Below, piece by piece: positions 16,565-49,615 of a stretch of DNA of 64,000 nt. Made by a program: the position numbers and the translations under genes. The notes below the pieces were generated by a model, which saw nothing but the letters and a program-made list of their open reading frames with translations, did no database searches and was not told the DNA's origin. The DNA lies in the NCBI GenBank assembly GCA_965222225.1, contig CBDCTK010000002.1:2432001-2496000 (forward strand), in the 5' to 3' direction. Position 1 is the stretch's first letter. Every line of letters begins with the position of its first letter. Source of the DNA: Candidatus Poribacteria bacterium. Its GTDB lineage: Bacteria; Poribacteria; WGA-4E; JAJDTR01.

Positions 16565-16762
16565 CTATAGTCATCACAGCTATGAATTATACATCTTGGG
16601 CTCTCGTTGTTCGGTCTGTCGCAGTGTAATTTATTGCGCGTCTTCTGTCGGAGCGAGCTCTGCTCGCAATATGAAGTCGCGACCTGGAGATCGAGGAATT
16701 TCTATCGCGTTCCTTGTTCAGTCACTTGATCCTACAGGCTGCTACACTGCGAAAGTCCTAAC
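16565..16762. mobile_element. MITE/REP composite, inverted relative of 3384-3520, interrupted by a micro-element
   Basis: CTATAGTCAT terminus; AATTTATTGCGCGT...CTGTCGGAGCGAGC matches the reverse complement of 3426-3460. Confidence 0.6.
16695..16731 (-). repeat. 36-37 nt GATC-bounded structured micro-element, copy 1
   Basis: Reverse complement reads GATCAA GT GA CT GAACA AG GA AC GC G ATAG AA ATTCC. Confidence 0.8.
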
Positions 16763-16873
16763 GAAATAGTAAAACGACAGATGCAAAAACTAATGACGAA
16801 TGAAAACAACTCCATCAATATTCGAGACCGGAGTGGATTAGGCCCAACATATTGTCTGACGAAGGGACATCTT

Positions 16874-19090
16874 ATGACTTATAAATTAGGCGCTTGGCAA
16901 AAGCGTTGCTTTTTCCTACTGTTTCTCTGGCTGTTATCGCCCATGATTGTCGGCGCAGCGCCGGAGGTTACACAACTCCGAGCCGAGGCGCACCGCACTT
17001 CTCAGCGCATCAAAATCGACGGCGAACTTAGTGAAGCCGATTGGCAGCGGGTAGAACCCATCCGCCGATTTGTTCAGATTGAACCGGACGAGGGGAAACC
17101 GATTTCGCAGCCGACGGAGGTACGCATCCTTTATGACAATCGGAATCTCTACTTCGGATTTACCTGTTCTGACTCCGATATTTCCCAGTTGGTTGCCAAC
17201 GAATTGCGCCGTGACTCACGTCTGTATGAGAACGACAGCGTATATGTGCTTTTGGACACCTACAACGATCGGCGCGGCGGATTTTTCTTTCGCGTCAACG
17301 CATTGGGGGCTATGCAGGACACGAGTATATCAGGCAGCGGCGATACATGGAACAACAACTGGGATGCGGTATGGACGTGCCGCGCCAAGATTAACGAGGA
17401 TAACTGGACGGCGGAGATTGCCATTCCTTTCAGCCAACTCCGTTTCACACAGAGCGACGTGATGGAGTGGGGGATGAATCTGGGGCGGAAAATTAGCCGG
17501 AACAACGAAGAGGCAACGTGGGCTCCGGTGTCCAAAGCCTATCGAGAGGGCGGCGTACGAGAGTTCCGTACCGCCAACATCGGAAGCCTGGGTGGTTTGA
17601 AGGGGATTTCTCCTTCTCGGCATATAGAGTTGTTGCCCTATGTCCTGCCGGGATTTGCTCTATCGGACGATGATGAATCTCAAACCAAACGAGTGCTGGA
17701 CATCGGATTGGATGTGAAGTACGGCATCACCCCCAATCTTACCGGCGATCTCACGTTTAACACCGATTTCGCGCAGGTCGAGGCGGACCGAGAGCAAATC
17801 AATTTGACGCGATTCAGCCTGTTCTTCCCGGAGAAGCGCCCCTTTTTTCTGGAAGGATCCGGCTTTTTTGATTTCGGCATCTCGTCCAACTCGTGGTTCC
17901 ACCGCCTGCTGTTCTACAGTCGGCGCATCGGTCTGGAGGAAGGGCGCGCCATACCCATCATAGCCGGAGGCAAACTTACGGGAAAAATCGGGGAGTACGG
18001 CGTCGGTTTCCTAAATGTGTTGACGAATGAATTTGACAACACAAGTTCCGCCGTTGACGCGGATGATGTCATCGTTGTACCGCGGACAAACTTTACGGTG
18101 CTACGAGCGAAACGGGACATCTCCAAAGGATCGACCGTCGGACTCATCGCCACGAACAAGCAGGACGCCGACACATACAATCGCTCTGCCGGAGTCGATT
18201 TTGTCTACCGCCCGTTCGACAATATGGATGTGAATGGCGTGTGGGCTCGCACTTTCGACGAGGGACAACCCGATCAGAACGACGCCTGGACGCTCGGCAG
18301 CCGTTGGCGCAACGACCGCTTTATGCTGGAGGGGGCATACATGGACATTGGCGAGAACCTTAATCCCGAGGTCGGATTCGTCCAGCGAAAGGGTGTCCGC
18401 CGTATCCGCACCGACATGCGTTATACCCCTTGGCCCGGGGTCTTGGGTATTCGCCGCATCATCACGGGACCGGAGATTGGCTTGTTCTTTAACCAAGAGG
18501 GCGAATTGGAAACCCGAATACTTACACTCGCCGATTGGGTTAATTTTGAAAGTGACGACTGGCTGCAATTTGGCGCGCAGCGAATCATGGAACGCCTTGA
18601 CGAGGATTTCGAGGTACATGAGGGATTCATTATCCCGGCCGGCGAATACCATTTCAGTAAGTACAACGTCGGTATTTTCACCGATCGTGCGGAGAAAATC
18701 TCCGGTTATTTTCGCCTGAATCTTGGCAGTTTCTTCAATGGGGATAAACGCGGATTTGAAAGTGGAGCGAATTTCAATCCGAGTCCGCAAGTGCTCATCG
18801 AATCGCGGTATCAGTTCAATCGGGTCACGCTCCCAGACGGATCTTTCAACACCCATGTGGTCGGGACGCGCGTTGTCTATTCCGTATCGACAACCCTTTT
18901 CGGGAAACTGTACGCGCAGTGGAATAGCAGCCGGGACGTAATCTCCACCAACTTCCTGTTGAACTACATCTACCATCCCGGCAGTGATTTTTACTTGGTG
19001 TTCAACCAGAATTACGACAGCCGAGGGGCGGCTATCAAGCATATCGACTCCACGCTGGTCGGCAAAATGACGTATTGGTGGAATCTGTGA
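16874..19090 (+). CDS. CBM9-like + DUF5916 outer-membrane/secreted protein
   Basis: Signal peptide, IDGELSEADW, WTAEIAIPFSQLRF, NTDFAQVEAD, FFPEKRPFFLEG, LFYSRRIGL and a beta-rich C-terminus; start could be 16781. Confidence 0.8.
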   Translation: MTYKLGAWQKRCFFLLFLWLLSPMIVGAAPEVTQLRAEAHRTSQRIKIDGELSEADWQRVEPIRRFVQIEPDEGKPISQPTEVRILYDNRNLYFGFTCSDSDISQLVANELRRDSRLYENDSVYVLLDTYNDRRGGFFFRVNALGAMQDTSISGSGDTWNNNWDAVWTCRAKINEDNWTAEIAIPFSQLRFTQSDVMEWGMNLGRKISRNNEEATWAPVSKAYREGGVREFRTANIGSLGGLKGISPSRHIELLPYVLPGFALSDDDESQTKRVLDIGLDVKYGITPNLTGDLTFNTDFAQVEADREQINLTRFSLFFPEKRPFFLEGSGFFDFGISSNSWFHRLLFYSRRIGLEEGRAIPIIAGGKLTGKIGEYGVGFLNVLTNEFDNTSSAVDADDVIVVPRTNFTVLRAKRDISKGSTVGLIATNKQDADTYNRSAGVDFVYRPFDNMDVNGVWARTFDEGQPDQNDAWTLGSRWRNDRFMLEGAYMDIGENLNPEVGFVQRKGVRRIRTDMRYTPWPGVLGIRRIITGPEIGLFFNQEGELETRILTLADWVNFESDDWLQFGAQRIMERLDEDFEVHEGFIIPAGEYHFSKYNVGIFTDRAEKISGYFRLNLGSFFNGDKRGFESGANFNPSPQVLIESRYQFNRVTLPDGSFNTHVVGTRVVYSVSTTLFGKLYAQWNSSRDVISTNFLLNYIYHPGSDFYLVFNQNYDSRGAAIKHIDSTLVGKMTYWWNL

Positions 19091-19216
19091 CAACGATACA
19101 TCTTTGGTTTCAATGCCCCGAAGTACTGTGATGGTAGTCGTTGAATCGAATAAAACCCTATCGTGTTTAAAGCTCAACCAGAACGGATGCTCTGGTTAAC
19201 TCGTGGATGGCAAACT

Positions 19217-19658
19217 ATGAAAGCCTATATCTCCATAAAATACCGTGCAGACAACGGTAACAAAGATTGCATTCAAAAAATCTCATCCGCTCTTGAGCAA
19301 AACGGCTTTGAAACCGTATGTGTCGCCCGTGACATTGAGAAATGGGGAGGGGTTCAATTAAGTCCTCACGAGTTGATGCAACGGACATTTACCGAAATTG
19401 ATTCGAGCAACCTACTCGTGGTCGATTTGACAGAGAAAGGAGTAGGATTGGGCATCGAAGCGGGATACGCACACGCCAAGCAAATTCCGATTGTCGTAAT
19501 TGCCAAAGAAGGGGTCGGACGTTTCAACGACTTTACTGGGGATTGCGCAGCAACTGTTCTTGTATGATGAATTCGAAAATCTTAACCAATTGTTTCAAGG
19601 TATAACTTCCTTGGACATTGGTACAAGCCCTCGCGTTGACTGGGGAATGAAATGCTAA
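19217..19658 (+). pseudogene. Nucleoside 2-deoxyribosyltransferase-like protein with a +1 frameshift at the G run near 19510-19514
   Basis: KAYISIKY and DLTEKGVGLGIEAGYA; the shifted frame continues GSDVSTTLLGIAQQLFLYDEF. Confidence 0.65.
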
Positions 19659-20119
19659 AAGTCTCTCTTAGACCGATTACACAGAAGAATCTCAATGAGT
19701 GTATTTCCCTCAAAGTGACTGATTGTCAGCAGAACTTCATTGCCTCCAATGTGAAGTCACTTGCAGAAGCGTTTGTCAATCCAACGCTTTATCCTTTCGG
19801 CATTTATGACGCAAAAGCACATTACCAAGCGAATCCTATCTTGGTCGGATTCACGATGTATGAAATTGTTGACGCAGTCGGTTTCATTTTACGCCTGATG
19901 ATTGATGAGAAGTATCAAAGGAAGAGGTATGGCAGAGCGGCTATGATTGAGGTGATGCGACGGTTGAAATTGCATCCGGAGGTCGAGCGGATTGCAACTA
20001 GCCATCAAAGGCAAAATAAAGCCGCTGCGAAGCTCTACGAAAGTCTGGGATTCGTTGAGTGGAAATCTGAATTAGCGGCGGAGAATCCCAGTGAAAGGTA
20101 TCTGATTCTTGAAGAATAG
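19652..20119 (+). CDS. GNAT acetyltransferase (diamine N-acetyltransferase-like)
   Basis: RLMIDEKYQRKRYGR, NKAAAKLYESLGF. Confidence 0.85.
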   Translation: MLKVSLRPITQKNLNECISLKVTDCQQNFIASNVKSLAEAFVNPTLYPFGIYDAKAHYQANPILVGFTMYEIVDAVGFILRLMIDEKYQRKRYGRAAMIEVMRRLKLHPEVERIATSHQRQNKAAAKLYESLGFVEWKSELAAENPSERYLILEE

Positions 20120-20147
20120 CACAACCGATGCCACAGCAAAGCCCAAA

Positions 20148-20172
20148 GGCTGGTGCGCAATGCGCACCCTAC
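20148..20172. repeat. REP hairpin (GGTGCGCANTGCGC.CCCTAC family)
   Basis: Near-identical copy at 23899-23923; GTAG end on the minus strand. Confidence 0.65.
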
Positions 20173-20200
20173 ACGCACGAACCTCCTGTTGAGATGTGCC

Positions 20201-21205
20201 CTACCAGTCGAAGACGGCGCCTACACTACCTCCACGCTCCGAATCCAACTGCGCATACGCCGACGCCGCCTCACTCGGCGAGAAGCGATGTGTAATCAGG
20301 TCGGAAACGCACATTTGCCCGCGCCGCACGTATTGCAAGAAGAGTTGCCGTTGACGGGTCGCCGTCCACGACGCGTGTTGCGGCGGCAGGTTTTCGTTCT
20401 GCGTGCCGATGAGACGTAGTTGCCGCGTCAACAGATCCGACGTGAGATGCTGCTTCGTGGGGTGCGGGCTATCGCCTAGAAGTATTACCTTGCCATACCG
20501 ACGCGCCAGCGGGAGCGCCAACGGCAAAACTGTGTGATGGCCCGTCGCGTCATAAACCACATCCGCAAGCTCGCCGTCGGTACTCTCAAGGACGGCATCC
20601 TTCGCATCGGCAACGCTTCCACAAAAACTCGCTGTCGCGCCGTGCGCGAGCGCGATGTCCAGCCGCGCCTGAATCTGATCTATCACCAACACCGATCGAA
20701 GACCCATCACCTTCAGATACTGCGTCACAAGTTGCCCGATGGGGCCGCAGCCGATGACTACAGCGGTTTCTCCCATGATATGCTCGGCTTGACGCACCGC
20801 GGTTTGCGTAATCGTTGCCAGCATACACCATACGGCATTATCGCTACTTACATCCTCGGGAATCTTGATGATTCCGGGTTGATTGCCCGAAAGGTTCACA
20901 TGCCCCCGGTGGGACGCGGTACAGAAAACCCGATCTCCCTCACTGAAACCTTCAACCTCATCCCCAACCTTGACAATCTGCCCCACGTTACTGTAGCCGG
21001 GATAGAACGGGTATTTTACCCAGTTATGCCAGTGGCTGCCGGGGTCGGATTCGCCGCGATAACAGATCATCTCCGTCCCCATACTCATAAGCGTAACCAG
21101 CGTCTGAAGGGTAATCTCGTTCGGCGCGGGTTCGGGAACATCTATTTCGGTAAAACTAACCTGCCTGCCTCCTGTAAATGCAACGACACTCGACTTCATA
21201 CGCAA
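20201..21205 (-). CDS. Zinc-binding alcohol dehydrogenase / MDR family oxidoreductase
   Basis: SMGTE, PGYSNVG, VIGCGPIGQ Rossmann motif, DATG, LITHRF. Confidence 0.85.
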   Translation of the reverse strand: MRMKSSVVAFTGGRQVSFTEIDVPEPAPNEITLQTLVTLMSMGTEMICYRGESDPGSHWHNWVKYPFYPGYSNVGQIVKVGDEVEGFSEGDRVFCTASHRGHVNLSGNQPGIIKIPEDVSSDNAVWCMLATITQTAVRQAEHIMGETAVVIGCGPIGQLVTQYLKVMGLRSVLVIDQIQARLDIALAHGATASFCGSVADAKDAVLESTDGELADVVYDATGHHTVLPLALPLARRYGKVILLGDSPHPTKQHLTSDLLTRQLRLIGTQNENLPPQHASWTATRQRQLFLQYVRRGQMCVSDLITHRFSPSEAASAYAQLDSERGGSVGAVFDW

Positions 21206-21384
21206 AATTCCTCAATTGTGTTGAATACTTGTCGGACAATCTGTGGACACGGACTGGATGATCCGGAGGTCTATCGCAATGACGGTTAGGATAGGCGAAA
21301 GCAGGACAAAGTATGACGGGAGAGATAGACGAGAAGCCTACTGCGGATATGAAAATTTCAATACAGATTGCCCTTTGACGCTCG

Positions 21385-21735
21385 TTAATCGTCTGAGTTC
21401 AGCGCGGCGATTGCTTCGTCTTCGCTATCGAAACGCTCGAAAATGGTAATCAGCCGTCCCATGACTATCAAATTCTGTATGTCAGTGCCGATGTTGATGA
21501 GGCCTATGCGCCCATCTTTGCGGACAACGGATACGTGACACGCGACGAGGGTGCCAAGACCGCTACTGTCAATCCTCGCGACATCCCCCAGGTCTATCAA
21601 GATCTTCGGGGTACCCGAGATCTTTTCAAGTTCTCCGCTAATCTGTTCTCTCAACGCGGTACCGGCGGGGCCAATAATCCGACCGGAGGGTTTGATAATA
21701 AGAATACCTTCGCTTTCGCGAATTTCTGCTGCCAT
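21385..21735 (-). CDS. STAS-domain anti-sigma-factor antagonist
   Basis: IDLGDVARIDSSGLGTLV motif. Confidence 0.85.
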   Translation of the reverse strand: MAAEIRESEGILIIKPSGRIIGPAGTALREQISGELEKISGTPKILIDLGDVARIDSSGLGTLVACHVSVVRKDGRIGLINIGTDIQNLIVMGRLITIFERFDSEDEAIAALNSDD

Positions 21736-21968
21736 AAATTTATCTCCTAATGATTGTTTTAAGAATCTCTATTAAGTCAAGATTTCTCCTGAGAGGAAGA
21801 GTTCCTCCAATTCAGTTGAGAACCGATTATATCACACAACACCCCGAACCGCAAGCCTTGAGCCATGAAAGGAAAAGGCTATAGCATCTAAGAGAAGAGA
21901 AAGGCGATTTGATAATCGCGAATCGATTCATGATTGTAGGGGGATCGCTCGCTTAATTCTATATTGTG

Positions 21969-21997
21969 TTGACATGCCCAACCAGATTTGGTATTCT
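21969..21997 (+). promoter_or_regulatory. sigma70-type promoter of the molybdoenzyme operon
   Basis: TTGACA-17 bp-TATTCT. Confidence 0.55.
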
Positions 21998-22079
21998 TTA
22001 GGCGTGAAAAGCCGCATTCATACCATGTTGGCTATCCTGCGATGCGAGGGTTGCCTTAGACGTTGATGGAGGATTAATT

Positions 22080-22946
22080 GTGAGAAGTTTCGAGTTTTTT
22101 GAACCCAAGACAATTGGCGAGGCGTCTGCCCTGCTTGCTCAGTACAGTGGCGAAGCCGAACTCTTGGGCGGGGGGACAGACCTGATTATCGGGATGAAAG
22201 AGCGGACGCTGACACCTAAATATGTCATCAGCTTAGAGAACGTTCTTGGTATAGAAGGCATTACATACGACGAAAACGACGGGTTGTGGGTTGGCGCCAT
22301 GACGAAGATGCGCGCCATAGAACGCTCTTCAATCGTGCGCGAACGCTATACCGCGCTTGCAGAGGGAGCGGAGGAAGTCGGATCCATTCAAATACGCAAT
22401 CTAGCCACGCTTGGCGGGAATATTGCCCACGGCTCCCCTGCCGCGGATACCGCCGCCGCGCTACTGGTGCTGGCTGCTCAGGTCAACATCGCCAACGGTG
22501 AGGGTGAGCGTACGGTTCCAATTGCAGATTTCTTCCTCGGTCCAGGACAAACGGTGTTGCAGACGGGCGAAATCCTTACAGGATTCTCTATGCCTCCTCG
22601 CTCCGCGAATTCAGGTTCACAGTACCTCAAACACAAGATTCGGCAAGTCATGGATCTCGCTTTCGTCGGCGTGGCAACGTCCGTAAGTTTGAACAACGGC
22701 ACGGTAGCAGATACGAAAATTGGGTTGGCGGCTGTAGCCCCGAAGCCGATTCGCGCAACTAACGCCGAGGCAATCATTACCGGCAATTCCGTAAGCGACG
22801 AGATATTGCAGCAGGCGGCGGGCGCGGCGGCGGCGCAGTCGAGTCCTATTTCGGATTTGCGGTGTACTGCCGAGCATCGAAGAGAGATAGTGGCGGCGTT
22901 AACAAAGGAATCCGCAGTGACCGCTGTGGCAAGAGCACAAGCATAG
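22080..22946 (+). CDS. Xanthine/CO dehydrogenase family FAD-binding (medium) subunit
   Basis: LGGGTDL, QIRNLATLGGNIAHGSPAAD, PISDLR. Confidence 0.9.
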   Translation: MRSFEFFEPKTIGEASALLAQYSGEAELLGGGTDLIIGMKERTLTPKYVISLENVLGIEGITYDENDGLWVGAMTKMRAIERSSIVRERYTALAEGAEEVGSIQIRNLATLGGNIAHGSPAADTAAALLVLAAQVNIANGEGERTVPIADFFLGPGQTVLQTGEILTGFSMPPRSANSGSQYLKHKIRQVMDLAFVGVATSVSLNNGTVADTKIGLAAVAPKPIRATNAEAIITGNSVSDEILQQAAGAAAAQSSPISDLRCTAEHRREIVAALTKESAVTAVARAQA

Positions 22947-22958
22947 AAAAGGAACCAC

Positions 22959-23444
22959 TTGAATATGAAGAAACATCCGATAAGTTTCACCGTCAATGGT
23001 GATTTGCAGGAGCTATTTGTTGAACCTCGCAAAACCTTGTTGGCGGTCATTCGTGACACAATCGGGTTGACTGGAACAAAAGAGGGTTGCAGTACCGGCG
23101 ATTGCGGCGCTTGCACGGTAATCGTTGATGGCGAACCGGTAACATCGTGCATGATGCTTGCGGTCAGCGCAAACGGCAATGAGATTACGACAATCGAAGG
23201 AATCTCCAGTCCCGGGCAACTACACCCGGTTCAGCAAGCCTTTTTGGAGAAGGGCGGATATCAGTGCGGTTTCTGCACTCCCGGCTTTATCATGGCAGCC
23301 AAAGCACTTCTTGATGACAATCCCAACATACCGGAAGACGAAATGCGGCACGCGCTCGGCGGAAACATCTGTCGGTGCACCGGGTATACGAAAATAATTG
23401 AGGCAGTCCTGAGCGCGGCAGAAACCATGCGCGCAAATACTTAA
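22959..23444 (+). CDS. Xanthine/CO dehydrogenase family [2Fe-2S] (small) subunit
   Basis: GCSTGDCGACTV, QCGFCTPG, GNICRCTGY. Confidence 0.92.
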   Translation: MNMKKHPISFTVNGDLQELFVEPRKTLLAVIRDTIGLTGTKEGCSTGDCGACTVIVDGEPVTSCMMLAVSANGNEITTIEGISSPGQLHPVQQAFLEKGGYQCGFCTPGFIMAAKALLDDNPNIPEDEMRHALGGNICRCTGYTKIIEAVLSAAETMRANT

Positions 23445-23470
23445 ACACGACACGAAAGAAGGGGATGAGA

Positions 23471-23665
23471 ATGGCTAAAACCCATCGAGGATTCGGCATT
23501 CGTTCGGAATATAACAGTGGCAGAGGAACCTGCCCGGTATGTAACAGGACCGGCGTTAAGGTGCTCTACAGCCGCGAGATTGGTGACAAAACCATCAATA
23601 CGTGTAAGCGATGCAATGCGGCTTTGGGACGCGGTAAATTGCGAGAAGCAGTCGCCAACCTATAG
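23471..23665 (+). CDS. Small basic Zn-ribbon protein (CPVC...CKRC)
   Basis: 64-66 aa, Lys/Arg-rich, two CxxC pairs, purine-rich RBS upstream. Confidence 0.7.
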   Translation: MAKTHRGFGIRSEYNSGRGTCPVCNRTGVKVLYSREIGDKTINTCKRCNAALGRGKLREAVANL

Positions 23666-23753
23666 CTTCGGATCAATTACTGAAATCACAGAAAAAGGGC
23701 ATTATTTCATGTTAACTTTCAAGTGAGACTCGTGAGAAATCAGTGCCTTTTTA

Positions 23754-23954
23754 GAGCTTGTTTGAATAACCAGTGGCAATACCATTTTTGAGATTTTGAG
23801 AAAGTTTTTTCATGTTTTCATTGTTGGCTGCTACATACCTGTAGGATCTCTATGGCAGTCGCTATTCGCTCCCTTGATCCCACTCTGGGGCTTTTAAAGG
23901 CTGGTGCGCAGTGCGCGCCCTACAAACTTTGCCACCTATTATTCAAACAGGTTC
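23754..23954. mobile_element. MITE-A (GAGCYTGTTTGAATAA termini) with REP and micro-element cargo
   Basis: TIRs GAGCTTGTTTGAATAA / TTATTCAAACAGGTTC flanked by TTA/TAA; sister copy at 42092-42220. Confidence 0.7.
23844..23879 (-). repeat. Micro-element copy 2
   Basis: Reverse complement reads GATCAA GG GA GC GAATA GC GA CT GC C ATAG A GATCC. Confidence 0.8.
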
Positions 23955-23957
23955 TAA

Positions 23958-24216
23958 GCTCGACTTTGTACATTTGAAAGACATCACAGGCAACAATAAA
24001 CAAGTGTTGCCAAAAAGCGGAGGAAATTTTGATTCTCTCGGCTTTTTGGCAGACCATTGAAAATGTCGGTAGCGGTTTCCAGATTCATGCAGATAACGTG
24101 TTGGGTTTCACTCAAATTTCGGTGTTGCATGGCGGGGCAAGATGCCCCGCCTACGGGTTTGGTGTTGTACGGATTTCCGTACAACCCAACCATTGTACTT
24201 TTGTACAAAGTCGAGC
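23958..24216. mobile_element. MITE-B (GCTCGACTTTGTACA TIRs, TAA/CTAA duplication)
   Basis: Perfect 15-bp TIRs with TAA on both sides; homologous copy at 42224-42506. Confidence 0.8.
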
Positions 24217-24321
24217 TAAGTATTGACTCACGTGAATCACACTTTCGCTAAACGTAGCCTATAGACCATCCGGAACTAAATAGTTGCCCAGACTCATTCA
24301 GTTAGATAAGGTAGGAGTGCC

Positions 24322-26747: not shown

Positions 26748-26810
26748 GTAGGGAATAACGATCAAGCGGCCGAACAGCGAGTGCGATAGCGATCCCCCGT
26801 TATTCCCTAC
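26748..26810. repeat. REP hairpin GTAGGGAATAACG...CGTTATTCCCTAC with micro-element copy 3 (26760-26795, + strand) in its loop
   Basis: Perfect 13-bp arms; insert reads GATCAA GC GG CC GAACA GC GA GT GC G ATAG C GATCC. Confidence 0.8.
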
Positions 26811-35223: not shown

Positions 35224-35307
35224 GGACTTACTATCGCACGCCTTAATCAGTCAGTTGACCGCTCCCTATAGGATCTACTATGGCCCTCGCTGTTCACTCG
35301 GTTGATC
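35224..35307 (-). repeat. Two tandem micro-element copies (35224-35260 and 35271-35307)
   Basis: Reverse complements read GGTCAA CT GA CT GATTA AG GC GT GC G ATAG TA AGTCC and GATCAA CC GA GT GAACA GC GA GG GC C ATAG TA GATCC. Confidence 0.8.
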
Positions 35308-39492: not shown

Positions 39493-39553
39493 GATCAAGG
39501 GAATGGATAGCGAGTAGGATTTACTATCGCCTTCGCTGTCCGCTCCTTTGATC
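39493..39553. repeat. Micro-element: partial + strand copy (39493-39514) joined to a full minus-strand copy (39517-39553), inside a GTAGGAGCGATC REP
   Basis: GATCAA GG GA AT GGATA GC GA G; the full copy's reverse complement reads GATCAA AG GA GC GGACA GC GA AG GC G ATAG TA AATCC. Confidence 0.75.
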
Positions 39554-39813: not shown

Positions 39814-39887
39814 TGCCCGGTCGTCTAATGGTAGGACGCATGGCTCTGGACCATGTTGCGAAGGTTCGAGTCCTTCCCGGGCAGCCA
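39814..39887 (+). tRNA. tRNA-Gln(CTG)
   Basis: Acceptor TGCCCGG/CCGGGCA, anticodon arm CATGG-CT-CTG-GA-CCATG, GGTTCGAGTCC, encoded CCA. Confidence 0.95.
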
Positions 39888-39891
39888 ATCG

Positions 39892-39963
39892 GGCGCTATC
39901 GTCTAGGGGTTAGGACGGGTGGTTCTCAGCCATCAAACCGGGGTTCGATTCCCCGTAGCGCTA
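39892..39963 (+). tRNA. tRNA-Glu(CTC)
   Basis: Acceptor GGCGCTA/TAGCGCT, anticodon arm GGTGG-TT-CTC-AG-CCATC, GGTTCGATTCC; CCA not encoded. Confidence 0.93.
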
Positions 39964-40202: not shown

Positions 40203-40286
40203 GGAATCTCTATGGGTGTTGTATCAAGATTTACTATCGCCTTCCTTATCCAGTCAGTTGATCCCTCGTTATCCACTCGCTTGATT
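40203..40286 (-). repeat. Nested micro-elements (inner 40227-40263; outer split 40203-40215 + 40264-40286)
   Basis: Inner reverse complement GATCAA CT GA CT GGATA AG GA AG GC G ATAG TA AATCT; outer AATCAA GC GA GT GGATA AC GA GG...C ATAG A GATTCC. Confidence 0.75.
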
Positions 40287-40333
40287 TCTACAATCAGATG
40301 CGTTTCCCCTGATTTTAACGGTTACATCCCTTG

Positions 40334-40436: not shown

Positions 40437-41993
40437 ATGCAAACGCTACGAATTCTCTTCGTTTGTTTACTCCTCGGAATTGGACCGGTGACAGTCATTC
40501 TTGCAAGAGAAGTCAAGATTCTCGACATGGACGGGAAGCTAGGGGATACGTTCGGTTACGTCTCCATTAGCGGGGACACCGCCATCGTTGGGGCAAAGGG
40601 TAACGATGACCCAGTTCAGAATGGTGGTGCGGCCCATATCTTCGTACGCAGCAACGGCGAGGACAATTGGGTACACCATAAAAAACTCGCGCCCCCAGAC
40701 GTTAATAATGAGAGCCAGTTCGGAAAGGCTGTTGGCATCAGCGGAAAGTACGCCATCGGGGGGGCTTTGGAGGACGATTTCAAATTCCAGAATGCGGGCT
40801 CGGCTTATATCTATGAACGTACTGGGAAAAGCTGGCCACAGCGGGAAAAACTCACCGCCAGCGATGCTGCTGGAGGGGACGAATTCGGAACGTCTGTCGC
40901 TATCAGCGGGGACACCGCCATCGTTGGGGCACCGCGGCACGATGGAAATAACGGAAAAGATTCAGGGTCGGTCTATGTTTTCGTAAACATCGGCCGGCGT
41001 TGGAAAGAACAAGCAACCTTTACCGCCAGCGATGTAAGCGCAGGTGACCAGCTCGGAACGTCCGTGGCTATTAGCAGGGACACTGTCATCGTCGGGGCTC
41101 CCGGTAAAGCTGATGCCGGAAGGGAGTCAGGCGCGGCCTATATCTTCGTGCGCAACGGGGAAAAGTGGAATCAGCAGGCAAAACTTACCGCCAGCGATAC
41201 GGCTCAGAGGGACAAATTCGGCATCTCCGTCGCCATCAACAGAAACACCGTCATCGTTGGCGCTCTCGGCAAGGCCGACGCCGGGGCTTCTTCAGGCGCG
41301 GCCTACATCTTCGTGCGCAACGGGGAGAAGTGGAATCAGCAGGCGAAACTTACCGCCGCTGACGGGGCACAACTTGATAAGTTCGGCATCTCCGTCTCAA
41401 TTTTCCATAACACCGCCATCGTTGGGGCTAGTGGGGCAGATGATGGTGAAAAAAATGCTGGCGCAGCGTATTCTTTTCAGCGTACTGGCACATCCTGGGA
41501 GCAGAGGGCAAAGATCGTTCCCAGCGACGCGACAGAAAGTGACCAGTTCGGCATTTCCGTCGCAATTGGGGGGGAATTCGTCATCGTCGGGACTACGGGG
41601 CGTGACACATTTAAGGGCGTGGCATATATCTATCGGTCCATAGAAGATTTTCACCCGGTTGATCCATCTGGGCTGACAGTGACCACGTTGGGACAGGTCA
41701 AGCGGACCGCGCTATATCAAAACTTCCCCAATCCGTTCAATCCCGAGACCTGGTTGCCGTATCGCATAGCTTCCGCTGCACAAGTCACTCTTCGCATCTA
41801 CAATGTCCAGGGGCAGTTTGTCCGTGAGTTGGATCCTGGGCTGCAACAACCGGGAGGGTATTTGAGCAGGGAAACCGCTGCCTATTGGGATGGCACAGAC
41901 CAATTCGGAGACGCCGTTTCCAGTGGTGTCTATTTCTACACGCTCCAAGCCAACACGTTCGAAGCGACCCGGAGAATGGTCATTCTGAAATAG
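40437..41993 (+). CDS. Secreted FG-GAP repeat beta-propeller protein with C-terminal FlgD-Ig/T9SS-like sorting domain
   Basis: Signal peptide; about seven FGxSVAISGDTAIVGA...GAAYIF repeats, two of them near-identical in DNA 165 nt apart; C-terminal QNFPNPFNPETWLPY...YWDG...SSGVYFYTL. Confidence 0.88.
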   Translation: MQTLRILFVCLLLGIGPVTVILAREVKILDMDGKLGDTFGYVSISGDTAIVGAKGNDDPVQNGGAAHIFVRSNGEDNWVHHKKLAPPDVNNESQFGKAVGISGKYAIGGALEDDFKFQNAGSAYIYERTGKSWPQREKLTASDAAGGDEFGTSVAISGDTAIVGAPRHDGNNGKDSGSVYVFVNIGRRWKEQATFTASDVSAGDQLGTSVAISRDTVIVGAPGKADAGRESGAAYIFVRNGEKWNQQAKLTASDTAQRDKFGISVAINRNTVIVGALGKADAGASSGAAYIFVRNGEKWNQQAKLTAADGAQLDKFGISVSIFHNTAIVGASGADDGEKNAGAAYSFQRTGTSWEQRAKIVPSDATESDQFGISVAIGGEFVIVGTTGRDTFKGVAYIYRSIEDFHPVDPSGLTVTTLGQVKRTALYQNFPNPFNPETWLPYRIASAAQVTLRIYNVQGQFVRELDPGLQQPGGYLSRETAAYWDGTDQFGDAVSSGVYFYTLQANTFEATRRMVILK

Positions 41994-42091
41994 TATCAAA
42001 TGACCAGATGATGGCAGGAACACTGACCTAGATTGATTCCAGCCATCACAATTGAACTCGGCGAGCGTTTCCACCATCTAGCCAATGTTAA

Positions 42092-42220
42092 GAGCCTGTT
42101 TGAATAATCCAAATTCGTCTCTGAGAGTTGCCATTTTACGGGTAAATACTTTCAAAATAGCGTGACTTTGCCCATAAAATGACAAGAAATGACAGTCCCA
42201 CCTACTTTTCAACCAGGCTC
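42092..42220. mobile_element. MITE-A copy 2
   Basis: GAGCCTGTTTGAATAA...TTTTCAACCAGGCTC with TAA on both sides. Confidence 0.65.
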
Positions 42221-42223
42221 TAA

Positions 42224-42506
42224 ACTCGACTTTGTACATTTGAGCGAGGCAACAAACGGTGTCAATTAAGCGTTGAAGAAAAATGAAGAAGATTTTAACC
42301 ATCTGATCTTTTTGGTTAACCATTGAAAAAGTCTCCAGCGGTTGCTGATATTATGCAACCTGTCCGGATTTCTATCGCAGTCACTATGGGATCTTCTATC
42401 GCCTTCGCTATCCACTCAGTTGATCGTTCGCTTGATCCCCGCTGCGGGTTTGGTGCTTCACGGCTTTCCGCTCACCCAACCGTTGTACGTTTGTACAAAG
42501 TCGAGC
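42224..42506. mobile_element. MITE-B copy 2, central hairpin replaced by nested micro-elements (42366-42437)
   Basis: ACTCGACTTTGTACA / TGTACAAAGTCGAGC with TAA flanks; internal similarity to 23958-24216. Confidence 0.8.
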
Positions 42507-42891
42507 TAAAGATATTCTGACATTTCAACCGATTTTTCCGAGCGGATTGACACGACTAGATTTTTCTTTTTTTATCGGTTTTCCTCAAATCCAATAGCCT
42601 AAACTCGGGACAAGTCATCGTCTTGCCCCAAAAAGGCGCGTACGGGAGTTGGAGAATCTTATCCCCTAAAAAGTGTCAAGGTGTCTCCACGGCTAAGATC
42701 GATGATTTTGAAGAATCCGAGAATTTGGGATGACTCATGTCTAAGTGATAGGCAAATTGTCAATTTATTATTTCACACTATTCTCCCTCATTGGACGGAG
42801 CCACTAAAGCTTAGGACCTTTCATCTGTTTCGTGGTTGAAAGCATTTTAACTGGCTAAGGACGTACAACAAACCTAATATTTGGAAATGTC

Positions 42892-44268
42892 ATGATTAGA
42901 GCGGACGATTCGATTACGCCGGAATCTTTACTTCCGGATCTCGAGCACTTCTGGACGCTCTCCGGCGCGAAGATTAGGGCCATTGAAGCCAGCTGGAAAC
43001 CGGAGGACGGTTCGCCAGTCTTTACGGTCGAGGGACGCTACACGGCCCAGGGATGGACCGAATGGACACAGGGCTTTCAGTACGGCTCGGCCTTCTTGCA
43101 GTACGACGCCACTGGTGACGAGACATTTCTCGAAATCGGCCGGCGCAAAACCGTCGAGGTGATGGCGACACACGTCTCCCATACCGGCGTACACGATCAC
43201 GGCTTCAACAACGTCAGCACCTACGGGAATCTCCTGCGCCTGATGAACGAGGGTCGCATTTCTGAGAACGCATGGGAACGGAGTTTTTACGAACTAGCGA
43301 CCAAGCTTTCCGGCGCCGTGCAGGCGAGCCGCTGGTCCTGTACCGACGACGGCGGCGGTTACATCTATTCCTTCAACGGGCCGCAGTCGCTTTTTTCGGA
43401 CACCATCCGCTCGCTCCGTGTGCTGGCGCTCGCCCACCGACTGAGACACGTGCTGATGAGTGAGAGGGACGAGCCCGTATCCCTGCTCGGGCGTCTGATT
43501 CAGCATGCCTGTGCCACGGCGCGCTACAACGTTTACTACGGGGAAGGTCGAGACATCTATGACGTGCGCGGCCGCGTGGTGCATGAAAGTTTGTTCAACA
43601 CGAACAACGGAAACTATCGTTCCCCGAGTACCCAGCAAGGGTATTCACCGTTTTCCACCTGGACCCGTGGCTTGGCCTGGATCGTTCTGGCGTATCCCGA
43701 GCAGCTTGAATTCCTGGCGGTACTTGATGACAGTGAGCTCGAGCCATTCGGCGGGCGCGAATCCATCGAGGGCATTATGCTCAAAGCCGCAAAGGCGAGT
43801 GCCGATTTCTACATCGAAAATACGCCGACCGACGGCATCCCCTACTGGGATACGGGCGCGCCGGGCCTCGCTGCAATGGGTGATTATCTTCACCGGCCGG
43901 CAGATCCCTTCAACGAACATGAACCCGTGGACAGTTCGGCGGCAGGCATTGCCAGCCAGGGTCTGATTCGCCTGGGCAGCTTGCTTGAGCGGCGCGGCGA
44001 GACCGATGCGGGACTGCGCTACATCCAGGCAGGCCTCACCGTATTGAAAACGCTGCTCGATGACCCCTATTTAAGCCATTCCGAGGCCCACCAGGGGCTC
44101 ATCCTGCACGCGGTCTATCACCGGCCGAACGGTTGGGACCATGTGCCCCAAGGGCACGTCGTGCCTTCGGGCGAAGCCTGTTTGTGGGGAGACTACCATG
44201 CCCGCGAAGCGGCGCTTTACGTTCAACGAATGGCGAAAGGGCTGCCCGATTACAAATTTTTCGGTTGA
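42892..44268 (+). CDS. Unsaturated glucuronyl hydrolase-like protein (GH88)
   Basis: EWTQGF, HDHGF, QQGYSPFSTWTRGLAW, PYWD, DSSAAGI, WGDY. Confidence 0.82.
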   Translation: MIRADDSITPESLLPDLEHFWTLSGAKIRAIEASWKPEDGSPVFTVEGRYTAQGWTEWTQGFQYGSAFLQYDATGDETFLEIGRRKTVEVMATHVSHTGVHDHGFNNVSTYGNLLRLMNEGRISENAWERSFYELATKLSGAVQASRWSCTDDGGGYIYSFNGPQSLFSDTIRSLRVLALAHRLRHVLMSERDEPVSLLGRLIQHACATARYNVYYGEGRDIYDVRGRVVHESLFNTNNGNYRSPSTQQGYSPFSTWTRGLAWIVLAYPEQLEFLAVLDDSELEPFGGRESIEGIMLKAAKASADFYIENTPTDGIPYWDTGAPGLAAMGDYLHRPADPFNEHEPVDSSAAGIASQGLIRLGSLLERRGETDAGLRYIQAGLTVLKTLLDDPYLSHSEAHQGLILHAVYHRPNGWDHVPQGHVVPSGEACLWGDYHAREAALYVQRMAKGLPDYKFFG

Positions 44269-44291
44269 GGGAAATTTGAAAAGGTTTCCAA

Positions 44292-45761
44292 GTGAGCCAA
44301 AAACAGAGCTTTCGGCGTATCGCGTCGTTCAAGACGATTGACAATTTCCGCGAGCACCTTGAGCATCTTGGTCTGGAGTTGCCGACGGATGATGCGATCC
44401 TCACAGGCGATGATTCGCCGCTTTTAAAGCCAATCCGGTTCGGAGAACGCACGATTTGCAACCGTTGGTGCGTCCAGCCTATGGAGGGCTGGGACGGCAC
44501 GACCACTGGCGGCGTGACCGATTCCATGACCCGGCGGTGGCAGCGCTTCGGCATGAGCGGAGCCAAACTCATCTGGGGCGGCGAGGCAATGGCAGTACGG
44601 CCGGATGGCAGCGCGAATCCCAACCAACTCATCATCAACAAGACAAATCAGGCCGGCATCGCCTCGCTCCGGGAAGCGCTCCTGAGCTCGCATCGCAAGC
44701 GCTACGGAAACACCGACAATCTCCTGATCGGTTTCCAACTGACACATTCGGGTCGCTTCTCACGCCCGAAAAACGAGAAAACGCTCAATCCGCCCATTGC
44801 TTACAGGCACCCCCTTTTGGATCAGAAGTTCAGCATCACGAGCGATGCCGCTGTTTTGAGCGATGACGACATCAAACGACTAATCGACGACTATATCGCG
44901 GCGGCCGGCACGGCTTACGGCGCCGGCGCGGATTTTGTGGACATCAAGCATTGCCACGGTTATCTCCTGCACGAATTCCTGGGCGCCCACACGCGGCCGG
45001 GACCTTACGGTGGATCATTTGAAAACCGGACTCGCATTCTCCGCGAGGTTGTTGAGGGAATACGTGCTCAAGTGCCAGAGTTGGAGATTGCCGTCCGCTT
45101 GAGCACATTCGACTTTGTCCCCTTCAAGCCGCATCCCGACCATAGCACCGCGACCAAGCTCGGTCCGGGAATTCCCGAGGCCTATGACGACATCTTACCG
45201 TATCGCTATGCCTTTGGCGTGAATCCCGATGACCCCATCACTTACGACCTCGACGAACCGGAACACTTGCTCGCCCTGATCGAGTCGCTGGGGATACAGT
45301 TGGTCAATCTCTCGGCGGGTAGTCCCTACTATAATCCGCACATCCAGCGGCCGGCGCTTTTTCCCCCGAGCGACGGTTACCAGCCGCCTGAGGATCCACT
45401 GGTCGGAGTCGCACGCCAGATTCATGTGGTCAAGGCGCTCAAGGCCCGATTTCCGAATCTGATCCTGGTGGGTTCGGGCTACACGTATCTGCAGGAATAC
45501 CTCCCGCACGTGTCGCAGGCTGTGGTGCGCGCAGGCTGGGTGGACTCGGTGGGATTGGGGCGCGTGATGCTTTCCTATCCGGAGATCCTGGCCGATGCCA
45601 CCGATACCGGCGCGATTGACAAGCGGCGTATCTGCCGGACTTTTAGTGATTGCACCACGGCGCCGCGCAACGGGCTTCCGAGCGGCTGCTACCCGTTCGA
45701 CGATTACTACAAGTACAACGAAGATGCCAAGCGGCTCAAAGAGATCAAAAAGACGTTTTAG
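44292..45761 (+). CDS. NADH:flavin oxidoreductase (Old Yellow Enzyme family)
   Basis: [46 protein letters not shown]. Confidence 0.88.
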
Positions 45762-45773
45762 CGGAGGTGTAAG

Positions 45774-46556
45774 TTGGCGAACACCCTCAACCGTGTGGCC
45801 CTGATCACCGGCGGAACGCGCGGCATCGGCCTGGGCATTGCCAAAGTTCTGGCTACGGACGGCTACTATCTTGCCTTAAACGGCGTCCGTGATGAAGCCA
45901 GGGTCAAGCCGGTATTGGAGGAACTCGAAGGTCTTGGCGTCAAGGTCGTGTACGTTCAGGGTGATATTGGCGAGACTAACGATCGCGAGACGATTCTAGA
46001 CGGTGTTCAAAAGTGTTTCGGCCGCCTGGACGTCCTGGTCAACAATGCCGGCGTTGCACCGGCTATCCGCGCGGACATTTTGGAGGCCGACGAGTTAAGC
46101 TTCAACGAACTCATGCGCGTCAACTGCGGTGGGCCGTTTTTTCTCACCCAAGCGGCTGCCCGATGGATGATCGAGCAGAAAGAAAAGGACGCCACGTATG
46201 CGGGCGTGATTGTCTTCGTGACGTCGATCTCGGCTGCGGTGGCCTCAATCAACCGCGGCGATTACTGCATGAGCAAAGCAGCGCTCAGCATGGCGGCGCG
46301 TCTTTGGGCCATTCGCCTGGCGAATCACGGCATTCCAGTCTATGAACTGCGCCCGGGAATCATCAAAACGGACATGACCGCCGACGTGAAGGAAAAGTAC
46401 GACCGCCTGATTGCCGAAGGGCTTACATTGGAACCCCGCTGGGGGTGCCCCGAGGACATCGGTCGCGCCGTCGCCGCGCTCGGGCGCGGCGATCTGCCCT
46501 ATGCCACTGGGCAGGTAATCGTACAGGACGGGGGCTTGACGGTGAGTAGATTGTGA
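45774..46556 (+). CDS. SDR-family oxidoreductase
   Basis: TGGTRGIG, NNAG, YCMSK, PGIIKTDM. Confidence 0.9.
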   Translation: MANTLNRVALITGGTRGIGLGIAKVLATDGYYLALNGVRDEARVKPVLEELEGLGVKVVYVQGDIGETNDRETILDGVQKCFGRLDVLVNNAGVAPAIRADILEADELSFNELMRVNCGGPFFLTQAAARWMIEQKEKDATYAGVIVFVTSISAAVASINRGDYCMSKAALSMAARLWAIRLANHGIPVYELRPGIIKTDMTADVKEKYDRLIAEGLTLEPRWGCPEDIGRAVAALGRGDLPYATGQVIVQDGGLTVSRL

Positions 46557-47152
46557 TTTCTTTGAAATCAATATGAAATCAGTGGATTGCGAAGAAATCA
46601 CAATCTGCCTCGGTTACATGGTGTGAACCTAGCAAAGCTGCAATCAGAATCAAGATTGGAGAACGCAGCCGGCCATGATAGACCTTCTAGCGTGACGCAC
46701 GCATTTTCGAATTGAATGCCGGCAAAGATTATCCATCTGTTTCGCTTTCGATTACAAGATGTTCCCTCATCTCGAGATGAAAGGTGCCATTCGGATTAAG
46801 GTGAGCGTATAGAGCAGGGTTAATGCGCGTAAATCCACTGCCCTGCCACGGAAAAAACGAACACATCCCTCAGAGCGTATGTGGAGAGTTAACTTGGTTC
46901 AACAAGCGATTACACAATGAACCACAATACCATAACTTCTCTTCCGCATTATCCGAAATCGGAAAGTTTGATTCTCAAATGCCACCGATCCTAGAATACT
47001 GGTAGAGTGAATGCGTAGACTGAGAATCACCCATGTTGGATAAACCCATTTACAAATCACAGGTTCTCAGCCGTTTTAACCGGATATAAGCCCCAAGACC
47101 TAGTATGGAAAATTTCGCAATTACATAAGTCTATGACGCGGAAGGTGAGTTT

Positions 47153-49069
47153 ATGGCTTTGAAGATTTCCACTTCGACTGCCGTTTTTGATGAACGGTCC
47201 ATTCTCGGAACATGGCTGAATGAGAGACTCCTGGATCCTGAAGAAATCCATCGCGAGATAGGACAATTCATCAAGGCCCGTATCCCGCCGCTTTCTCCTC
47301 CCGAAACCTTGACGGCGTGGCAGGATGAGAGCGACAGGTTGCGCCGACGGATTCTTGATGAGGTTGTATTTCGCGGGGTTCCGAACGAATGGATTGAATG
47401 GAAGCCCGAAGTTGTCTGGGGGGATTCGCTGGAAACCGGGGAGGGATACCGCATTCGGAAGTTGCGGTATGAGGCGCTTCCCCATCTGTGGATTCCCGCG
47501 CTCCTCTATGAGCCGATCAATCTTCAAGGAAAGCTCCCAGCGGTGCTGAACGTTAATGGGCACGTAGGCCCTAAAGGAAAAGCGATTCAGTATGAACAGC
47601 TCCGATGTATCAATCTTGCGAAACAAGGGATGTTGGCTTTGCATCCAGAGTGGCTTGTGTTCGGCGAGTTGGGGGATTTGGACTATAAGCACAATCGGTT
47701 GGCATATCTCGATCTCTGCGGATTAAGTGGGCTCTCAGTTTTCTATCTCGCCATGCGCAGCGGCCTGGATGTGCTTCTGGATCAGGCTGCTACGGATACG
47801 CAACGGCTAGCGATGACAGGGTTATCGGGCGGTGGCTGGCAAACGATTATCCTCGGATCATTGGACAAGCGCTTGTCTCTGCTGGTGCCGAATGCAGGAT
47901 ATATCGGATTGGATCAGCGCGTCGATCATCGATCTGACATCGGCGATCTCGAGCAAAATCCGACGGATCTGGTTTCAATCGCGGACTACACTCATCTTAC
48001 CGCCATGCTCGCACCACGTCCGACTTTGCTGATTTATAACGAAAAAGATGATTGCTGCTTTGTTTCAGAGCGAGCGAAACCTTCTGTTTTCGATCCAATC
48101 GTGCCATTCTACAGGCTCTTTGACCGTGAGACGGACTTTGAATTTTACGAGAACACGAATCCTGGGACACATAATTATGATCGGGACAACCGGCAGCAGT
48201 TTTACCGCTTCATCCATCATCACTTCCTCCCAGATGCGCCAATCGGCGAAGAAATCCCTTCCGAAACTGAATTGCTCAACCCGGATCAATTAGAGATGGG
48301 GCTACCTGAAGACAACGCGAATTTCTTTACATTAGCTCAGGCGCAACTTTCATCTCTGCCGAAAAATCGCCCGCCAACAGATGACCTACTTGCTGTCCAA
48401 AAGTGGCAGGAGAAGGCGCGATCTCGCCTTCTCAATCTGCTGAATTTGAAACCGATGCGAGCGAAGGCAATTGACCTTCGGCGCGCTTCACACGGAGAAC
48501 TGGAAGCCACATGGTACAGGTTGACTGTTGGGGAAGCGTGGAGCATTTCCGCACTGGTTGTGTCCAAAGCCTCTCCGCAGACCACAGTAATCACCTTCGC
48601 GGATGCTGGACGTGCGACAATGGAGGGGCTCATCAAGGAACAAATCGAAGCGGGTTCACGGGTTATTGCCGTCGATCCATTGTTCATGGGAGAATGCACG
48701 CCGAAGGGCGCTGCCCCGTCACATTACGCAATGATGATAGGGACGGTAGGTGAGCGTCCACTGGGGATACAGGTAGGCCAGATCGACGCAGTTGTAAAAT
48801 GGGCTTACCAGCAATACGGTGGTCAGCCGGTATACCTGCATTCTAGCGGATGGACTGCTGGAATTGTCGCAATCATGGCTGCCGGATTAAATCCGGATAG
48901 GATAGATCGGGTTGTCGTTCAAAATGGGTTGCCGAGTTTGAAACGACTCATCGAAGATCGTCTGGATTACGAGCAGTACCCCACGCTCTTCTGCTTCGGA
49001 CTATTGGAACAGTTCGACGTCGCGGAGCTAGTGGCTCTCTGTTTCCCCCGGAACGTAATAATCCAATGA
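47153..49069 (+). CDS. Acetylxylan esterase-like two-domain alpha/beta hydrolase
   Basis: NVNGH, TGLSGGG nucleophile, GDLEQ, APRP, GTHNY. Confidence 0.75.
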   Translation: MALKISTSTAVFDERSILGTWLNERLLDPEEIHREIGQFIKARIPPLSPPETLTAWQDESDRLRRRILDEVVFRGVPNEWIEWKPEVVWGDSLETGEGYRIRKLRYEALPHLWIPALLYEPINLQGKLPAVLNVNGHVGPKGKAIQYEQLRCINLAKQGMLALHPEWLVFGELGDLDYKHNRLAYLDLCGLSGLSVFYLAMRSGLDVLLDQAATDTQRLAMTGLSGGGWQTIILGSLDKRLSLLVPNAGYIGLDQRVDHRSDIGDLEQNPTDLVSIADYTHLTAMLAPRPTLLIYNEKDDCCFVSERAKPSVFDPIVPFYRLFDRETDFEFYENTNPGTHNYDRDNRQQFYRFIHHHFLPDAPIGEEIPSETELLNPDQLEMGLPEDNANFFTLAQAQLSSLPKNRPPTDDLLAVQKWQEKARSRLLNLLNLKPMRAKAIDLRRASHGELEATWYRLTVGEAWSISALVVSKASPQTTVITFADAGRATMEGLIKEQIEAGSRVIAVDPLFMGECTPKGAAPSHYAMMIGTVGERPLGIQVGQIDAVVKWAYQQYGGQPVYLHSSGWTAGIVAIMAAGLNPDRIDRVVVQNGLPSLKRLIEDRLDYEQYPTLFCFGLLEQFDVAELVALCFPRNVIIQ

Positions 49070-49308
49070 AGCGTGAGTTCACAAGTTCACGGGCTCATTC
49101 GCGCATCACGTTTCACACAGTAAGGAAATCTAATATTCTGTAAATGCAACTCAGGACCCCCCTACTGGTCTATCAAGTCGATGAGTGTATGCTCTTGTTG
49201 GTTGGCGTTTTACGACGCCACAACGGTTGTCGAAGCGGGTGCGGTAGAAGCCATAGAGCGAATTCCTTTCTTTAGGACAACAGCCGTCTCCTCACCCATT
49301 CTGCAATT

Positions 49309-49615
49309 CTATAGTCATTGCAATTAATAATTACACATCCTTGCGGGTAATAACATTCTTCTGTACCACAAGAGATCTCTATCGCACTCGCTATTCACTC
49401 GCTTGATCTGTTAGATTGTGGCATGCGCAAACTAACAGTTTGCGCTACGCGGAAGCGTTCGATTCTGTGGGTAATTAGATTCTTCTGTACCACAATTATA
49501 TAACCAATCTATCTATGTGCGAACACTCTCAATTTTTGCATGTCTTAGTGCATATCGTCATCGTTCATTAACATACAATCATAATATGTGTAAATATGAA
49601 TGTAAATGACTAAAA
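49309..49615. mobile_element. CTATAGTCAT-family MITE with REP hairpin, internal ~27-bp direct repeat and a micro-element (49373-49408)
   Basis: Right end matches the reverse complement of 3351-3380; GCGCAAACTAACAGTTTGCGCTAC hairpin; GGGTAAT...ATTCTTCTGTACCACAA at 49345 and 49469; insert reverse complement GATCAA GC GA GT GAATA GC GA GT GC G ATAG A GATCT. Confidence 0.7.

Follow-up and report, generated by a model that had tools for sequence, protein, structure and literature searches.

A dispersed repeat and its copies

The 64,000-nucleotide (nt) stretch analysed here, called the window in what follows, belongs to a contig of Candidatus Poribacteria bacterium (CBDCTK010000002.1, positions 2,432,001 to 2,496,000) and carries scattered copies of an element of about 34-37 nt. 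In the form used for the searches, this element reads GATCAA-a-GA-b-GRAYA-b'-GA-a'-GCGATAG with an (A/G)ATCC tail, where a/a' and b/b' are the proposed paired positions. The copies are given in window coordinates, and minus means that the motif reads on the complement of the window strand.

When the window was scanned with the pattern of the original prediction, allowing at most two mismatches, eight intact copies were detected, against none in 100 dinucleotide-preserving shuffles. Seven of these read on the minus strand and only one (26760) on the plus strand, so that most copies carry the predicted motif on the complement of the window strand. A ninth copy is degenerate, with three mismatches in its core (35231-35260, minus). 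The nine complete, two split and one partial copies that had been announced were all found by the pattern scan and by the checks of the split and partial copies, one of the nine being this degenerate copy (Table 1). A covariance model trained on 102 distinct copies, all eight intact window copies included, scored these eight at 47-60 bits and the partial copy at 14.5 bits in a window search with filters off; the degenerate copy (35224-35260) was missed by the same search at E <= 1.

Table 1. Copies and parts of copies of the element in the window.
Feature	Position	Strand	Basis
Complete copy, inside a GTAG-headed repeat resembling repetitive extragenic palindromes (REP)	16695-16731	-	Core 16702-16731 plus 7-nt tail; 59.9 bits
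Complete copy, GCCATAG variant	23844-23879	-	Pattern; 56.3 bits
Complete copy, the sole one on the plus strand; first GA reads GG (one deviation)	26760-26795	+	Pattern; 48.3 bits
Degenerate copy amid remnants of further copies	35224-35260	-	Three mismatches in core 35231-35260
Complete copy, GCCATAG variant	35271-35307	-	Pattern and covariance model
Partial copy: the 24 nt from the 5' end to a'; directly adjoins the tail of copy 39517 on the other strand	39493-39516	+	14.5 bits, E 0.68
Complete copy	39517-39553	-	Pattern and covariance model
Degenerate 3' remainder of the outer copy split by copy 40227	40203-40226	-	Split copy
Complete inner copy nested in another copy; also at the orthologous site of G005	40227-40263	-	Pattern
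5' part of the outer copy split by copy 40227; begins AATCAA	40264-40286	-	Split copy
3' 23 nt of the outer copy split by copy 42389	42366-42388	-	Removing the inner 36 nt restores the exact element
Complete inner copy that interrupts an outer copy in its loop (GA^ATA)	42389-42425	-	Pattern
5' 12 nt of the outer copy split by copy 42389	42426-42437	-	Split copy
Complete copy	49373-49408	-	Pattern; 57.5 bits

Far more copies are found beyond the window. The strict form of the pattern has 563 matches in the 5.7-Mb genome (310 plus, 253 minus) with 210 distinct cores, and the genome holds in total about 1100 5'-modules and 1000 3'-modules. About 10% of the copies are devoid of the tail, and orphan modules are nearly equal in number (198 for the 5' and 211 for the 3' module). 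Only 47 of 562 copies lie inside crude genes based on open reading frames, even though 77.5% of the chromosome is coding.

The distribution of the pattern is restricted to a few lineages. Among 176 genomes of the phylum Poribacteria, it was detected in 20, several of them single-contig assemblies, and in none of the other 156. More than 100 copies are present in 14 genomes, which are all ten members of the window's genus and all four of one genus belonging to another family; six further genomes contain 1-14 copies each. Taken together, the genomes provide roughly 5,800 copies. A search of the literature on Poribacteria, from which supplementary files were left aside, yielded no relevant paper describing such repeats.

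The element also forms tandem arrays (G000:C2:1578373-1578560 and the neighbouring 1.536-1.585 Mb) in which the units recur with a period of 38 nt and are joined by an invariable linker of 8 nt, TCTTGTAG; they differ solely at the paired positions, and this 100-kb bin holds 46 copies. Such a period, a constant linker and units varying only at paired positions led to the rejection of a CRISPR array. Head-to-head pairs of copies were also observed.

Two of the nine window copies contain GCCATAG instead of GCGATAG, and they are also the only two such cases among the 563 copies of the genome (cores 23850-23879 and 35278-35307). These two cores may be excision footprints, since the same CC commonly precedes ATAG at places occupied by an inner copy. 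The nested pair at 42389 is itself carried by a repeat of about 290 nt (about 42219-42509, minus) bounded by terminal inverted repeats, CTCGACTTTGTACA, which is found at dozens of sites of the genome and looks like a miniature inverted-repeat transposable element. Two adjoining tRNA genes (39814-39963, plus) are located between element copies, and the intergenic DNA flanking them on both sides differs greatly among the species of the genus.

Covariation, pairing strand and propagation

The original prediction held that the variable positions covary as a hairpin, and this is borne out by two sets of copies. In the 563 copies of the genome, the mutual information at the four proposed pairs amounts to 0.88, 1.17, 1.27 and 0.47 bits, any other pair of columns remaining at 0.28 or below, and the share of Watson-Crick or G-T combinations is 85-97% of the cells of each pair. 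The alphabet is restricted at every pair; a case in point is T, which hardly ever follows directly on the GA or AA located before a 5'-arm position. The second set consists of the 102 distinct copies, eight from the window and 94 from other metagenome-assembled genomes of Poribacteria. In this set 93.9% of the stem cells are paired, a change on both sides is observed in all four pairs, and the covariation score of 0.569, to be compared with 0.230 in shuffles, is reached by none of 500 shuffles and falls to at most 0.138 when the partners are slid.

The strand on which this pairing takes place can be identified from the wobble pairs. Among 2252 cells (563 copies), 226 are G-T and 20 are A-C, an excess that designates the GATCAA strand as the pairing one. 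Transitions at invariant sites comprise 109 G>A changes over seven G positions and 24 C>T changes over two C positions, which is equal per site. This symmetry indicates that the wobble excess results from selection on the GATCAA strand and not from a mutation bias. It is thus the GATCAA strand that pairs, and G-T wobbles do mark the folded strand, as had been supposed.

The role of the fold also appears from the propagation of the variants. The cores were classed according to their pairing and counted in distinct flank contexts. At least two such contexts were found for 47 of 78 all-Watson-Crick cores, for 29 of 74 cores containing a wobble and for only 3 of 58 cores with a mismatched pair, none of the latter reaching three contexts. 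Only paired or wobble-paired versions have multiplied, recurring in many flanks, and mismatched cores are almost all singletons; the fold was therefore selected during propagation. Once in place, copies decay where they sit, as illustrated by the G005 orthologue of the nested copy 40227-40263, which has accumulated two uncompensated changes. The hairpin fold matters for spreading, and not for staying in place.

The covarying part is limited to the two short stems. The closing GATC/RATC helix that had been added to the predicted fold did not hold up: it is paired in 75.7% of cases, its 5' side is invariant, the C8:G36 pair is formed in 51 of 102 copies and no covariation supports it. A larger stem formed by the flanks was also sought. 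Of the 563 copies, 52 have complementary flanks of at least 6 nt, and random pairing of the flanks gives 53, so that a general stem of this kind was rejected on the basis of its random frequency, a subset of copies merely lying inside other hairpin repeats. The comparison with Rfam gave no family matching the element: in the window only two tRNAs pass the gathering thresholds, and at E <= 1 no match falls on the element copies between 39300 and 42600.

Insertion sites, orientation and candidate enzymes

The claim that this repeat is a tiny non-autonomous mobile element is sustained by nested insertions and by empty sites. For 67 of the 563 copies, an exact outer copy reappears once 34-36 nt are taken out; this number rises to 107 if one substitution is tolerated. 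Within the element, insertions concentrate in the loop (GA^ATA), at both the second and the starting GA, and at G^CGATAG, whose G^C is targeted in both orientations. Targets other than the element itself consist of three other hairpin (REP-like) repeat families and unique DNA, and for one hairpin repeat family the element is found directly after the hairpin at 70 of 185 sites. Empty sites were obtained from both orthologous and paralogous comparisons. The segment 39344-39616, which holds copy 39517, is absent from the orthologous place in G005, the nearest relative. When 400 kb of G005 were compared with G000, three clean pairs of filled and empty sites were found, this number being limited to three by the high divergence of the intergenic DNA. 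Moreover, an orthologous site in the repeat downstream of a gene for a Y1 transposase-like protein is filled in G000, G001 and G005 and empty in G002, G009 and G004, and for 86 of 562 copies a paralogous site without the element was found. One public run contains a 36-letter 'insertion' that was not taken as an allele, since a match to it lies at a paralogous locus within the same genome.

The two junctions behave differently. On the left, G or GA invariably precedes (A)TCAA, and 1-4 nt are shared with the target, from G or GA up to GATC in one REP family; an upstream GANNG preference is weak (GA at -4,-3 in 49 of 234 copies, 14.6 being expected). The 3' junction is ragged by 1-3 nt: after ATCC, either C/T and an intact target are found, or one or two target bases are lost. 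No target duplication was found at the junctions compared. Models combining a single fixed insert (ending in ATC, ATCC or ATCCC, or with a duplicated GATC target) and a single target cut were rejected, as none of them fits all junctions. The original prediction had drawn an analogy with cyanobacterial small dispersed repeats (SDRs), one family of which inserts into the palindrome HIP1. HIP1 is rare in this genome (120 copies) and is not the target of the element, so that the cyanobacterial frame does not apply.

The orientation of the copies is indifferent to transcription and follows an asymmetry of the replication type. Relative to the flanking genes, 166 copies are co-directional and 165 opposed. 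By contrast, in 65-71% of the copies (367 of 562 without thinning) the GATCAA strand is the one locally richer in C. This bias persists when the copies are thinned to one per 10 kb (131 of 208, p 2e-4), as well as when the skew is corrected for transcription and one copy per 5 kb is kept (180 of 259, p 3e-10). It is not an artefact of composition, since the element itself is G-rich and the skew was taken from coding sequences only. The GTAG-headed REP family of the same genome displays the same strand bias (166 of 221). The GC skew of chromosome C2 changes sign many times, even after removal of the transcription term, and the orientation of the repeats tracks the local sign; this patchiness suggests many rearrangements or assembly joins. 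The skew profile being patchy, the direction that this bias takes with regard to replication is an inference.

Candidates for an enzyme acting in trans were looked for among Y1/HUH proteins and reverse transcriptases. Pfam reports five Y1_Tnp matches in the window's genome. The best of them, a 157-aa IS200-like Y1 protein (G000:C2:3080255-3080728; locus L031, 1756-2229, minus), is recognised by the NCBIfam IS200/IS605 transposase model at 65.8 bits for a cut-off of 55. Its HuH, WQ and YIKNQ..HH motifs resemble those that PMC6006769 gives for subclass 1.2, a subclass listed without REP in a table of that article. The gene (L031; homologues L036-L054) is flanked by inverted GC-rich hairpin repeats made of GCCCC-loop-GGGGC and then GACAGGTG; this hairpin repeat surrounds the gene in all the genera examined, with a sequence that differs from genus to genus. 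At this locus (G000:C2:3078700-3082100) the Y1 gene stands between tandem paralogous genes of 364 and 366 aa, which are mutually very similar. A second Y1 transposase-like gene (G000:C2:3088937-3089269, L034) is broken by one TAG codon and flanked by inverted GTAG-headed repeats, GTAGGAGCGATCTCC...GTCGCGAC, in a REPtron-like arrangement. These repeats are also targets of the element, and their family hosts the window copy 16695.

Two candidate genes were discarded as co-distributed movers. A 247-aa gene resembling REP-associated tyrosine transposases (RAYTs) has strong matches in G000 and G005 only, a fragment in G009 and weak matches in four other genomes, and the IS200-like Y1 gene has a wider distribution than the element. 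In one genus that possesses the Y1 gene without the element, a search for inserts of 25-50 nt in the cognate repeat returned three matches in five genomes, none of which is such an insert. Among the 41 genomes searched, Y1_Tnp is present in all 13 element-rich ones without being exclusive to them, and no reverse transcriptase is consistently associated, the RVT_1 domain being absent from three of the nine other genomes of the window's genus and its matches in the remaining ones lying mostly below the curated cut-off. Y1/HUH transposase-like proteins, either RAYT-like or IS200-like, are the best candidates for the mover.

Mode of spread and relation to known repeats

On balance, these data favour the view that the element is a non-autonomous single-stranded-DNA hairpin micro-transposon, moved in trans, perhaps by an enzyme of this type. 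The invariant blocks (GATCAA, the two GA, the loop G-R-A-Y-A, GCGATAG and the (A/G)ATCC tail) would frame four free base pairs. The element would travel as single-stranded DNA of the GATCAA strand, and a trans-acting protein would read the fixed bases together with the shape of the short hairpin, namely 2 bp, a tandem G.A step, 2 bp and the pentaloop. Being too weak alone, this hairpin would have to be held by the protein. Joining would then take place behind G or GA (weak consensus GANNG^), preferably where other hairpin repeats, or existing copies of the element, have their foot or loop, without target duplication and often with one or two bases of the target lost on the 3' side. The left junction, which is exact, would be accounted for by a strand transfer of the HUH type, and the ragged right junction points to a step of repair or replication.

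Several observations weigh against this mechanism. No enzyme could be tied to the element, the Y1 genes being flanked primarily by other repeats; the copies standing beside Y1 genes are secondary insertions into such repeats, and the orthologous sites are empty in three species. Y1_Tnp is also found in 21 of the 28 genomes with few or no copies, and in one genus the IS200-like Y1 gene is present in all seven genomes searched together with zero copies of the element. The ragged 3' junction is unlike a clean HUH strand transfer. If the G-rich strand is here the leading one, the strand bias seems opposite in sign to that of IS608-type elements; it could besides stem from insertion or from a preferential loss of copies. 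Concerning the fold itself, DNA nearest-neighbour calculations give minimum free energies of -1 to -2 kcal/mol (z-scores between -0.16 and +1.59), and RNA folding gives -4.4 to -5.1 kcal/mol with z-scores near 0. Neither predicts a stable hairpin, so that any fold of the element is probably held by a protein. Lastly, some copies are covered by contigs from RNA libraries, which may contain DNA, and this leaves room for transcription.

According to the principal alternative, the element is transcribed, folds as RNA and is copied back by target-primed synthesis. A left junction sharing 1-4 nt with the target and a 3' junction with small losses do resemble target-primed copying. GNRA-like pentaloops and tandem sheared G.A pairs are typical motifs of RNA, and with RNA parameters the covarying hairpin is recovered in two of five folds, one of them closed by the pairing of ATC with the GAT of GCGATAG. 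The window stretch appears in public runs of at least eight studies, RNA libraries being among the sources of contigs that cover copies, but these runs offer contigs only, in which strand, ends and DNA carry-over cannot be judged. An RNA route is nevertheless unlikely. It accounts neither for the indifference of the copies to the direction of the genes nor for the replication-type strand bias; the near equality of orphan 5' and 3' modules reveals no one-sided truncation, and RVT_1 is patchy within the genus. The original prediction had left the choice between an RNA and a single-stranded DNA intermediate; an orientation that ignores transcription and follows replication-type asymmetry, together with several element-rich genomes devoid of a reverse transcriptase, favours the DNA form and leaves the RNA form less support.

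Strong covariation and invariant single-stranded bases are also the usual signature of a functional RNA. The copies could accordingly be structured RNAs or protein-binding sites, for instance regulatory or stabilising transcripts, selected locus by locus without being mobile. This is very unlikely, as the copies interrupt one another, have no orientation relative to genes, match no Rfam family, differ in presence or absence between species at orthologous sites and, in the orthologous case described above, decay without compensation. A chromosome-architecture motif of the host, that is, a polar signal in the DNA recognised in the course of replication or repair, would agree with a strand bias following replication-type asymmetry. 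It is highly improbable, since this bias is of 65-70% only, the copies cluster, nest and form arrays, those genomes with more than 100 copies are confined to two genera, clear insertion polymorphisms are seen and hairpin covariation is not expected from a signal read in the duplex. An assembly or library artefact, which the breaking of short-read contigs at the copies might evoke, can be dismissed, given that the motif is shared by 20 of 176 separately assembled genomes, several of them in a single contig, and that contigs from separate runs span or enter single copies.

Among known systems, a single-stranded-DNA hairpin element of this kind appears to work most like the REPs and their paired forms (REPINs), and like the cyanobacterial SDRs as these are reportedly described. 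With the former it shares a short extragenic palindrome in hundreds of copies (563 copies, 47 of 562 in genes, hairpin covariation), the presence of Y1/HUH genes in the same genomes and the strand bias of the GTAG-headed REP family of its own genome. According to passages of PMC3116915, compensatory changes are common across the REPIN hairpin. The differences are nevertheless clear. The element has no GT[AG]G head of its own: GTAG is found within 12 nt upstream of 157 of 563 copies, at variable distances, because these are mostly insertions into GTAG-headed REPs. No Y1 gene, and hence no cognate RAYT gene, is flanked primarily by the element, which has no REPtron of its own. In addition, its stem is reduced to 2+2 bp around the tandem G.A step, and it inserts into REPs and into itself.

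SDR1-8 of Nostocaceae are said to have been described by Elhai et al. in 2008 as dispersed, mutually nested and non-coding repeats of 21-27 nt, some of them with a conserved predicted hairpin. By this description the analogy made by the original prediction stands, as an analogy only: the element belongs to another phylum, has another sequence, is longer (34-37 nt) and targets G or GA rather than HIP1, and neither the target nor the cyanobacterial setting carries over. The parts of PMC5861425 devoted to SDRs indicate that one family uses HIP1 as insertion site and that SDRs were not found outside Nostocaceae.

The element further resembles IS200/IS605 insertion sequences by its one-strand hairpin and the lack of target duplication and, as it seems, by the insertion beside a short sequence and a link with replication. 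It differs from them by a single covarying hairpin within 34-37 nt instead of two subterminal ones, by its ragged 3' junction and by the fact that the IS200-like Y1 gene of the genome is flanked by another hairpin repeat. The attC sites of integrons are folded single strands recognised by their structure and not by their sequence, and their orientation relative to replication matters; they are longer, tied to gene cassettes and to an integrase, and do not occur as dispersed solo units. As to the strand, IS608 and ISDra2 target the lagging-strand template according to the abstract of PMC6006769, and the bias of the element is apparently of opposite sign.

A more daring and only tentative proposal is that the element represents a new class of 'nano-transposon'. 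This would be a single-stranded DNA hairpin of about 36 nt, read by its shape and a few fixed bases and preying on REP hairpins and on its own copies. Its mover might be a Y1/HUH protein that has been domesticated and works on a substrate new for its family, or replication-fork chemistry without any dedicated transposase. If this reading were true, the presence of the element in two genera of different families would imply a horizontal spread among co-resident sponge symbionts.

The size of the element is close to the lower limit of mobile DNA, and even for the REP and SDR families, which have been known for long, the way of moving still awaits an explanation. Thousands of copies in about 14 genomes have kept, in four free base pairs, a record of which variants could still propagate. 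Combined with a visible target rule and with nested insertions that give exact boundaries, they form an unusually clean natural data set, which allows a direct biochemical test of the strand, the protein and the cut. The family finally points to a source of plasticity in the genomes of uncultivated sponge symbionts, whose short-read assemblies break at element sites because of the copies located there.

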